Shown in pieces: positions 15,177 to 21,061 of a DNA stretch of 64,000 nt. Source of the DNA: a virus (Duplodnaviria; Caudoviricetes); IMG/VR virus record IMGVR_UViG_3300022917_000008, positions 64,001 to 128,000 of that record. The stretch is one strand, 5' to 3'. The first letter of the stretch is position 1. Each line of letters opens with the position of its first letter. The translations under genes were made by a program, and so were the position numbers. The notes under the pieces are model-generated. The model had not been told where the DNA came from. It did no database searches and worked only from the letters and a program-made list of their open reading frames with translations.

Positions 15177-15246
15177 GGGCTAGATGCCAATGGCAGGTCA
15201 ACTCCCTTGCAAGGAGATTGTTTGGGTTCGACTCCCACTATGTCCA
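15177..15246 (+). tRNA. tRNA-Ala(TGC), atypical
   Basis: CTCC-CTTGCAA-GGAG; G3:U70 pair; irregular acceptor and D arms. Confidence 0.7.
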
Positions 15247-18912: not shown

Positions 18913-18928
18913 GACTGCACTATATTTG
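18897..18928 (+). promoter_or_regulatory. Bacteroidetes promoter
   Basis: TTTG-N20-TATATTTG upstream of the tRNA-like RNAs and suppressor. Confidence 0.8.
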
Positions 18929-18936
18929 TATTACAT

Positions 18937-19009: not shown

Positions 19010-19059
19010 GGAGAGGTGCTTCTAAGCTTTAGGTTGGTGTGATCCCAACTCTCTCTGCA
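19010..19059 (+). ncRNA. mini tRNA-like RNA B
   Basis: GGAGAG/CTCTCT acceptor stacked on GTTGG-TGTGATC-CCAAC. Confidence 0.5.
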
Positions 19060-19062
19060 AAT

Positions 19063-19115
19063 GGGTAGAAATAGCATAGAGCTGTCAGTTGGGTGTAAGC
19101 CCCACCTACCCACCA
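19063..19115 (+). ncRNA. mini tRNA-like RNA C
   Basis: GGGTAG/CTACCC-ACCA; TGGG-TGTAAGC-CCCA T-like arm. Confidence 0.6.
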
Positions 19116-19116
19116 T

Positions 19117-19189
19117 GCCTTCCTAGCTCAATTGATAGAGCGTCCATCTCTAAAATGGAAAGATGTGGGTTTGAGTCCCACGGATCGCA
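19117..19189 (+). tRNA. amber suppressor tRNA (anticodon CTA)
   Basis: TCCAT-CT-CTA-AA-ATGGA; canonical D-arm; two acceptor-stem mismatches. Confidence 0.85.
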
Positions 19190-19204
19190 CTTAAACTAAA
19201 CACA

Positions 19205-19567
19205 ATGGCTTAGATTACATCAACATCCAGATTGATAACTATAGTAAGGAGAGACCTTAGTCATGGTTATCAGACAGCACAGACAGGTCATGCAATAGCA
19301 GAATGGGCTTATAACAATCCCAGGACCTTTAGAAGGTGGAGAAAAGAAAGTGGGTACTTAATATGTCTTTCAGTAAGAAACCTAGCAGAGCTAGAGGCAT
19401 TCAACAGAAAGTTATATGACAACAAGATAAAGTACACAGCATTTTATGAACCTGACATTGGAGAGTTTACAGCAATAGCAATAACTCCTTCAACTAAGGC
19501 AGACCAGTTAACTAAGCATCTACAGCTAGCCAATGTAAAGGCTGGCACTAAGGACAAACACAAATGA
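19205..19567 (+). CDS. peptidyl-tRNA hydrolase 2-like protein with an in-frame TAG at codon 3
   Basis: IVRRDLS.G.QTAQTGHA...LICLSV...FYEPDIG..TAIA Pth2 motifs; ATG GCT TAG ATT... is in frame with the ORF called from TTG 19232. Confidence 0.8.
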
Positions 19568-19660: not shown

Positions 19661-19696
19661 AGCCCTCAGCCTAAAAACTGGGGGCTTTTTGTTTTT
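19661..19696 (+). terminator. intrinsic terminator (attenuator 2)
   Basis: AGCCCTCAG/CTGGGGGCT followed by TTTTGTTTTT. Confidence 0.85.
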
Positions 19697-20988: not shown

Positions 20989-21061
20989 GGTGCACAAGCT
21001 AATCTGGTGAAAGCACTAGACTGAAAATCTAGGGAGCTTGGATCAAAACCAAGGTGTACCG
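20989..21061 (+). tRNA. tRNA-Phe(GAA)
   Basis: CTAGA-CTGAAAA-TCTAG. Confidence 0.85.

Follow-up and report, generated by a model that had tools for sequence, protein, structure and literature searches.

The window analysed in this study is a stretch of 64,000 nucleotides, namely bases 64001-128000 of a single 155,657-bp contig (G000) of the viral record IMGVR_UViG_3300022917_000008. At one locus of this window, a tRNA gene with the anticodon CUA is directly followed by a gene for a protein resembling peptidyl-tRNA hydrolase 2 (Pth2), and the third codon of this gene is TAG. The record is 100% complete according to CheckV, and its large terminase is approximately 29% identical to those of Crassvirales phages of Bacteroidota. 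Positions are those of the window unless G000 is named; W denotes the window's own locus, and L with a number denotes a fetched homologue locus. The core of the locus consists of the following features.

19117..19190, + strand: tRNA with anticodon CUA (19150-19152), found by ARAGORN and by the Rfam model RF00005 (55.2 bits)
19191..19204, + strand: A-rich spacer of 14 nt, of the CTTAAACTAAACACA type, from the tRNA to the start codon
19205..19567, + strand: Pth2-like open reading frame (ORF), 120 codons from ATG through TAG at codon 3, with the stop TGA at 19565-19567
19211..19213, + strand: in-frame TAG, codon 3, followed by ATT
19232..19234, + strand: TTG, which is the nearest canonical start codon downstream of the TAG and is most readily interpreted as Leu within the protein

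The frame runs from ATG 19205 through GCT, TAG, ATT ACA TCA ACA TCC AGA and TTG 19232, all of which are in frame to 19567. An earlier note, made from the letters of the window, had described a tRNA with a CTA anticodon just before an ATG that is in frame with a Pth2-like ORF, and both observations were confirmed by the tRNA searches and by the protein family match given below. The tRNA(CUA) scored well above the Rfam gathering score of 29 and is mid-range among the tRNAs of the window, of which ARAGORN counted 23. It is a class I tRNA with discriminator A73 and no encoded CCA, and its anticodon loop has the standard 7 nt (CT-CTA-AA, with U33 and A37). Two tRNAs missed by ARAGORN were also matched by Rfam, one at 20989-21061 (51.5 bits, GAA anticodon loop, probably tRNA-Phe as in relatives) and a borderline one at 15178-15246 (29.8 bits).

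The protein matched the Pfam family PTH2 (PF01981) with 40.2 bits (cut-off 23, E 4.5e-10, profile positions 3-114 of 115), and the same family was recovered in a six-frame search of the contig. It also matched phrog_1866, which is annotated as "unknown function" (E 8.9e-16). The AlphaFold2 model had a pLDDT of 95.3 and a pTM of 0.87, and the top 12 Foldseek matches were all Pth2 or Bit1, with TM scores of 0.70-0.76 except for the NMR model 1rzw at 0.57. The profile match to PDB 2zv3 had an E value of 5.6e-12. In the alignment to 2zv3, the RxDL, AQ, HA, acidic (E)PD and T motifs are kept, the Lys of the GK motif is replaced by Tyr (GYQ), and the loop before the last strand is approximately 4 residues shorter. 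The structure model indicates that the protein has the alpha/beta fold of Pth2.

Homology searches found 11 homologues with 66-77% protein identity, and the DNA of ten lineages was compared (W, L001, L002, L005, L006, L007, L008, L010, L011 and L012). All ten of these crAss-like lineages had the same layout: a tRNA(CTA) lies 12-14 nt (six lineages) or 68-75 nt (four lineages) upstream, followed by ATG, one or two variable codons and TAG, so that the early TAG, whose conservation in homologues the earlier note had singled out for checking, stands at codon 3-4 in 10/10. The TAG is then followed by ATT or ATC, four or five codons, a Leu codon and ATA ACN GTN GTN. The last 15 nt or so of the spacer are similar in all. 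Changes between the TAG and the conserved core are largely synonymous (ATT/ATC, AGA/AGG, Ser TCC/TCA to AGT), and this exchange of Ser codons in particular indicates selection on the peptide. The lineages differ in the codon aligned with TTG 19232 (TTG 4, CTG 5, TTA 1), and CTA, CTC and CTT also occur in the wider family. A protein start at TTG 19232, which the earlier note had set against its own reading, was therefore rejected: the codon varies synonymously as Leu and is not TTG in most relatives. The orthologous tRNAs (n=10) are 60-93% identical, with compensatory changes at 17 of 21 pairs and an invariant anticodon loop CTCTAA, which indicates that the structure of the tRNA(CUA) is kept by selection.

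In the acceptor stem of the window's tRNA(CUA), the cloverleaf is otherwise regular, and C3.C70 and U4.U69 form the two mismatches that had been noted earlier, both pyrimidine-pyrimidine and adjacent. These mismatches raise another explanation, namely that the gene is broken and the tRNA decaying in this phage: the TAG would be a nonsense mutation, the mismatched tRNA would be inactive, and at most a shorter protein would be made from TTG 19232. The Pfam PTH2 profile does align from this TTG on (protein residue 1 to profile position 3). Against it, the 400-nt module, with its mismatches and its TAG, recurs unchanged in another metagenome contig (L037; 99.3% identity over 2.7 kb); because this contig is independent, the module is not an assembly error. 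The tRNA of L008 is mismatched at the same two acceptor positions with other bases (U.U and U.U) while the rest of the tRNA co-varies, and the remaining eight orthologues are fully paired. The ORF is otherwise intact and conserved, and the TAG is common to all ten close lineages and, as described below, to most family contexts. Because of this conservation and the independent assembly, we excluded the broken gene, the probability of which we consider to be very small.

The code used by the rest of the phage was then of importance. Under table 11, long ORFs are intact throughout the 155,657-bp contig, the window included, and reading TAG as sense gave no extra gain over TGA or TAA controls across the whole contig. 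Among ORFs of at least 90 aa in the whole contig, TAG is the stop in 17 of 138. From terL onward (window 25359-64000 and on to G000 155657), all 30 ORFs of this size on the + strand end in TAA, in line with the earlier claim that TAA endings prevail there; outside this set the counts are TAA 64, TGA 26 and TAG 17. Genome-wide or block-wise recoding of TAG (code 15), which the earlier note had also argued against, was rejected, with ORFs intact under table 11 and TAG still used as a stop. A codon-usage scan for TAG flanked on both sides by coding sequence gave seven hits at five places. No further internal in-frame TAG was found: the four left-arm hits in intergenic regions or small ORFs that were inspected are gene ends followed by new starts, and two opposite-strand hits inside long late ORFs were not inspected.

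We also asked how often such an arrangement is found in this genome. An ATG no more than 6 codons upstream of an in-frame stop that precedes an ORF was seen for TAA in 4/88, for TAG in 4/48 and for TGA in 5/53. Within this genome alone, the pattern could be chance; its significance comes from conservation in relatives. Three other genes are weak early-TAG candidates, two of which have a plain ATG after the TAG. A membrane-protein-like ORF at G000:C1:35529-36383 on the - strand (L094 529-1383) has GTG as its first canonical start, preceded at ten codons by an in-frame ATG GTA GGT CTA TAG; this is either a further candidate for an early-TAG gene or a product of chance.

The wider family comprises 865 cluster representatives at E <=0.001. 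Among the called proteins of the best 150 of these 865 representatives, 53 were truncated and lack the start of the core, and 32 begin with M-x(0-4)-Q-[ITV...]; both are what gene callers would produce because of an early TAG. The DNA of 16 viral loci, 53 metagenome loci and several GenBank phage records was examined, giving 68 distinct N-terminal contexts; as many fetched loci were short, the counts of tRNA(CTA) are lower bounds. In 50 of the 68 contexts, a TAG precedes the core with no ATG, GTG or TTG between them, and a tRNA(CTA) is found in at least 33 of these. In 6/68 the TAG is followed by a canonical start (tRNA(CTA) in at least 5), and 12/68 have no TAG (tRNA(CTA) in at least 3). All 50 TAG contexts have an in-frame upstream ATG, no more than 6 codons away in 46 and 7-13 codons away in the others, and the distance from the TAG to the core is 2-11 codons, with 23 in one context. 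The stop was TAG in 50/50 and never TAA or TGA, in genomes of 24-38% GC. The base after the TAG was A in 43 and G in 7 of the 50 contexts; in E. coli, a purine 3' of UAG is a context that favours amber suppression. The Leu codon is TTA in 23, CTA in 9, CTG in 7, TTG in 6, CTC in 3 and CTT in 1. A further TAG within the gene was found in only 3/50. One TAG-less member, at L018 2833-2998 (IMGVR_UViG_3300032516_005602), is directly followed by two tRNA(CTA) genes, of which one, 85 nt in length, has the long variable arm of a class II (Ser- or Leu-like) tRNA.

The same arrangement was found in other phage groups. The huge phages LR745206, LR756500, LR756501 and LR756504 have ATG, one or two codons and TAG ATT. 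The cultured Tenacibaculum phage pT24 (NC_049383; L098 2438-2446) has ATG AAA TAG ATA, and the best-scoring of its only four tRNAs is a tRNA(CUA) located 2.5 kb upstream of the Pth2-like gene. In the coordinates of NC_049383, the ATG stands near 194083, the TAG near 194089 and the tRNA(CUA) at 191520-191593. The annotated CDS of pT24 (L098 2573-3391) begins inside the Pth2-like core, and the upstream frame suggests a mis-annotation that leaves out the 5' part of the gene. In the cluster C mycobacteriophages Breeniome (Bxz1-like; L033 2956-2964), Myrna (L034 2468-2476) and Phabba (L035 2468-2476), the sequence is [A/G]TG TAG GTG, which is the annotated start of a "peptidyl tRNA hydrolase", with an annotated tRNA(cta) located 130-300 nt downstream of this gene.

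These data bear on a second explanation, in which ATG-GCT-TAG is a two-codon upstream mini-ORF and the hydrolase is made by re-initiation at AUU 19214 or TTG 19232, the tRNA(CUA) being near only since the family sits in tRNA arrays. The codon after the TAG is AUU, AUC or AUA in 38 of the 50 contexts, and at these near-cognate starts re-initiation is possible in principle; W has a TTG seven codons past its TAG, the mycobacteriophages have GTG directly after the TAG at a suitable Shine-Dalgarno spacing, and the family is also found in tRNA arrays without a CUA tRNA (L022, L076 and L081). The literature on the bar minigenes of phage lambda likewise links two- and three-codon minigenes with peptidyl-tRNA hydrolase. 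Re-initiation does not account for a stop that is always TAG despite the low GC content. It also fails for the other 12/50 contexts, in which the codon after the TAG (ACA, ACT, AGC, GGT, GTA or GTT) is not near-cognate and no canonical start precedes the core. The TAG-less homologues keep the N-terminal motif x-I-K-x-G-D-K-L, in which the TAG aligns with Thr, Ser or Lys; therefore, the Ile after the TAG is an internal residue and not a start. Moreover, the tRNA(CTA) was found in at least 33/50 of the TAG loci versus at least 3/12 of the TAG-less loci, and one of merely four pT24 tRNAs reads CUA. For these reasons, we believe that re-initiation is unlikely.

A maximum-likelihood tree of the family was unrooted and was viewed with a midpoint root. 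TAG forms occur to either side of this root, and TAG-less forms lie in several small nested clades. The TAG label changes six times on the tree, and at least 4 of these changes are forced by well-supported branches. This fits an old TAG with repeated losses, an order of events that depends on how the unrooted tree is rooted.

A third explanation accepts that the TAG is read by the tRNA and gives it no regulatory role: it would be a neutral relic of a recoded ancestor, or the first accidental client of the suppressor, with the tRNA kept for one codon. The probably recoded relatives with extra internal TAGs (L016, L021 and L050) are consistent with this. So are the late genes ending only in TAA (30/30), as expected under depletion of TAG and TGA stops, and the proposal by Borges et al. 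that standard-code phages with suppressor tRNAs are intermediates (10.1101/2021.08.26.457843). Under neutrality, however, varied TAG positions and loss by drift are expected, whereas the TAG is within the first seven codons in 46/50 and at most 14 codons in. The early TAG survives branch lengths of more than one change per site, and another TAG is present in only 3/50 genes. A single TAG-to-sense change would remove the need for the tRNA, yet the pair persists in crAss-like, huge and Flavobacteriia phages. A neutral relic is thus quite improbable in our view.

The nature of the tRNA was also considered. ARAGORN labelled it "tRNA-Pyl", a label that reflects the CUA anticodon only; pylS and pylBCD were not searched for. 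Pyrrolysine tRNAs have a 6-bp anticodon stem, a 3-nt variable loop and a small D loop. The tRNA(CUA) has a 5-bp anticodon stem (with a G.A mismatch at the sixth position), a 5-nt variable loop (4 nt in the ARAGORN drawing) and an 8-nt D loop, and it was not taken as a pyrrolysine tRNA. An initiator-like tRNA(CUA) that starts translation at the UAG was rejected as well. Initiator tRNAs are recognised by a mismatch at 1:72 and by an anticodon stem whose base consists of three G-C pairs; here, the anticodon stem is TCCAT/ATGGA, G1-C72 is paired, and the in-frame upstream ATG is conserved. Similarity to the other tRNAs of the phage was uninformative about the amino acid, as the best matches (0.62-0.73 identical) are spread over Met, Val, Arg, Lys and Glu, and the 44 distinct tRNA(CUA) sequences collected are heterogeneous. 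The "Q" at the TAG position in the homologues P0005, P0008 and P0009 was rejected as a sign of Gln, because these proteins translate only "with_TAG=Q", a gene-caller convention.

The following elements, all on the + strand, flank the core of the locus.

18921..18930, + strand: promoter-like Bacteroidota -7 box, TATATTTGTA, just 3' of the stop of the upstream gene
19010..19055, + strand: structured element that is conserved in both sequence and position, formed by a stem around GTGCTTCTAAGCTTTAGG and a T-arm-like GGTGTGATCCC
19063..19115, + strand: tRNA-like minihelix with the stem GGGTAG/CTACCC, a T-arm-like hairpin and an ACCA end, read from the sequence
19661..19696, + strand: terminator-like hairpin with a 9-pair stem and then TTTTTGTTTTT (T run), between the Pth2-like gene and tRNA-Leu (19699)

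The motif GTATATTTGTA is found at the same place in all aligned relatives, and the window has 9 copies versus 4.05 expected; the box at 18921 is thus a putative promoter. The element at 19010-19055 is kept 5' of the suppressor tRNA in W, L001, L002, L005, L007, L008, L010, L011 and L012. The minihelix is present in the aligned relatives, and its equivalent in L012 (478-546) scored 37.5 bits with the Rfam tRNA model. Four relatives have an insert of 55-60 nt between the suppressor tRNA and the ATG (L001 2902-2973, L007 812-886, L008 2906-2973 and L012 627-699). It holds a hairpin with compensatory changes (ACTCAGT...ACTGAGT versus CCTACA...TGTAGG) and might be a processing element. No Rfam match was obtained in the 68-75-nt spacers of these four relatives, and the idea of an HDV-like or theta ribozyme in the long spacer, taken from 10.1101/2023.06.13.544163, was dropped accordingly.

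Taken together, we believe that the Pth2-like gene is probably translated only through suppressor read-through of its UAG. The comparison reveals the pattern of programmed single-gene read-through, as judged at the level of sequence: the position of the TAG is conserved, coding constraint acts on both sides of it, and there appears to be no alternative start. The single-gene read-through switch proposed by the earlier note is supported by this comparative evidence, and we infer from the arrangement its further statement that the hydrolase is made only when the suppressor out-competes RF1. The output of the hydrolase would then follow the activity of the suppressor tRNA relative to RF1.

We propose that the tRNA-like elements, the tRNA(CUA) and the ORF are co-transcribed. 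A single transcript probably begins after the -7 box at 18921 and would hold the two tRNA-like elements, the tRNA(CUA) and, 14 nt on, the mRNA of the Pth2-fold hydrolase. Processing of the tRNA would free the tRNA(CUA) and leave an almost leaderless mRNA with an A-rich leader of no more than 14 nt, which suits Bacteroidota because they largely manage without Shine-Dalgarno sequences. Ribosomes would initiate at AUG 19205, read GCU and reach the UAG at codon 3. If the tRNA(CUA) is matured and charged, an amino acid would be inserted at the UAG and the 120-residue protein made; without suppression, RF1 would terminate translation after two residues. With the TAG so early, failed suppression would waste just a dipeptide.

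Several points weigh against suppressor-gated translation, besides the acceptor-stem mismatches and the near-cognate codons after the TAG described above. The tRNA and the mRNA would share one transcript at the locus, and therefore the gate cannot be a simple transcriptional timer. In the cluster C mycobacteriophages, the Shine-Dalgarno spacing favours the GTG directly after the TAG, and suppression is not required there. Back-up stops after TAG-terminated ORFs are not enriched: the median distance to the next TAA or TGA is 17 codons, the same as in the control. Finally, this subfamily has Tyr in place of the GK-motif Lys, and therefore the substrate could differ and may not be peptidyl-tRNA.

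As for the purpose of gating a hydrolase, we infer that the enzyme would be wanted only under active suppression, where it would recycle the peptidyl-tRNA of ribosomes stalled after read-through of UAG stops. The phage also encodes a tmRNA (Rfam RF00023, 75.6 bits, E 3e-29) at G000:C1:55909-56315 on the - strand, approximately 7.7 kb before the window start (L091 410-816), with the tag peptide ETEQYLLIK predicted by ARAGORN. A 73-aa ORF with a GGQ motif (..RPYGGQQVN..) at G000:C1:36486-36707 on the - strand (L094 1486-1707) matched PF00472 (RF-1/ArfB-type) with E 1e-6, below the cut-off, and may be a ribosome-rescue mini-protein. Studies have shown that cluster C mycobacteriophages combine a tmRNA, a Pth2-like gene and a tRNA(CUA) (PMC5122674, PMC9583779). 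The tmRNA, the GGQ ORF and this trio fit the purpose of recycling stalled ribosomes.

A broader proposal can be made only tentatively, and we regard it as possible and rather doubtful: the suppressor tRNA and the amber-gated Pth2-like gene would form an ancient mobile two-part module, which would chiefly explain why orphan amber suppressors are retained in standard-code phages and may seed genome-wide TAG recoding, with the hydrolase acting within the suppression pathway. In such a module, the hydrolase would not be a general housekeeping Pth; its targets might be peptidyl- or aminoacyl-tRNA(CUA), for instance, or ribosomes that have read through a stop and then stalled.

The targets of suppressor tRNAs in standard-code phages are an open question, and this locus supplies a concrete, conserved client. 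If the read-through is true, the locus would be a gene switch found in nature that takes the activity of one tRNA as its signal. It would also be an overlooked part of phage "code-change" kits, because gene callers truncate the gene or read its TAG as Q, and the truncated or Q-bearing calls of the family could then be corrected in annotation. The Tenacibaculum phage pT24 is a culture system at hand. In a full-text literature search, no paper was found in which the peptidyl-tRNA hydrolase of a phage is tied to an amber codon within its frame, or to a suppressor tRNA that unlocks it.

The recoding of a stop codon by suppressor tRNAs of phages is well documented for crAss-like and Lak phages, in which TAG is read as Gln ("code 15") (PMC7886860; 10.1101/2021.08.26.457843; PMC9523058). 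Borges et al. found that the genes for the code change are written in the standard code, mention a hydrolase 0 times, and treat standard-code phages with suppressor tRNAs as intermediates toward recoding (10.1101/2021.08.26.457843). The locus described here resembles the code-15 phages in its phage-encoded tRNA(CUA), its in-frame TAG that would need suppression, the stop codon proposed as a translational gate and the standard-code host. In contrast, a single gene is concerned here and not late or lysis genes as a block, the TAG keeps its place close to the start (codon 3; mostly 2-5 and up to approximately 15 in relatives) with the tRNA usually nearby, TAG still terminates 17 ORFs, and the product to be gated would be a translation-related hydrolase.

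The PTH2 of jumbo phages has been described by Iyer et al. 2021 (PMC7824862). The protein studied here is similar to Pth2 (PDB 2zv3, 3erj, 1wn2, 1xty; human Bit1, 1q7s) in its fold and motifs, and the gene is likewise found in tRNA-rich phages. It differs from the canonical phage PTH2, for which ORF295 of the Xanthomonas phage XacN1 (GK, plain ATG, no TAG) is an example, in having GYQ and an early TAG. The authors of XacN1 asked which genes its amber suppressor serves, and reading through the terminal TAG stops of 18 genes gave them no target (PMC5852040). The present phage is similar to XacN1 in combining the standard code with a tRNA(CUA), whereas the client proposed here is at the start of a gene. 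XacN1 was rejected as a cultured example of the arrangement: besides the canonical Pth2 ORF295 with its plain ATG, its phrog_1866-like domain is the C-terminal part of a 280-aa protein without an early TAG. As this family member lacks the early TAG, the suppressors of XacN1 are not explained by the module.

In programmed read-through, as in Q-beta A1 and retroviral gag-pol, host tRNAs decode the stop with low efficiency, giving a C-terminal extension of a protein that is also made in a short form. Here too, a stop inside a functional frame would be decoded; in contrast, we propose that a dedicated viral tRNA is needed for any product to be made. The bar minigenes of phage lambda (AUG-AUA-UAA) yield a short peptidyl-tRNA and are tied to Pth. 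Unlike these minigenes, which end in UAA with no conserved frame after the stop, the Pth2-like family has UAG as its early stop without exception, and its reading frame runs on into a conserved protein.

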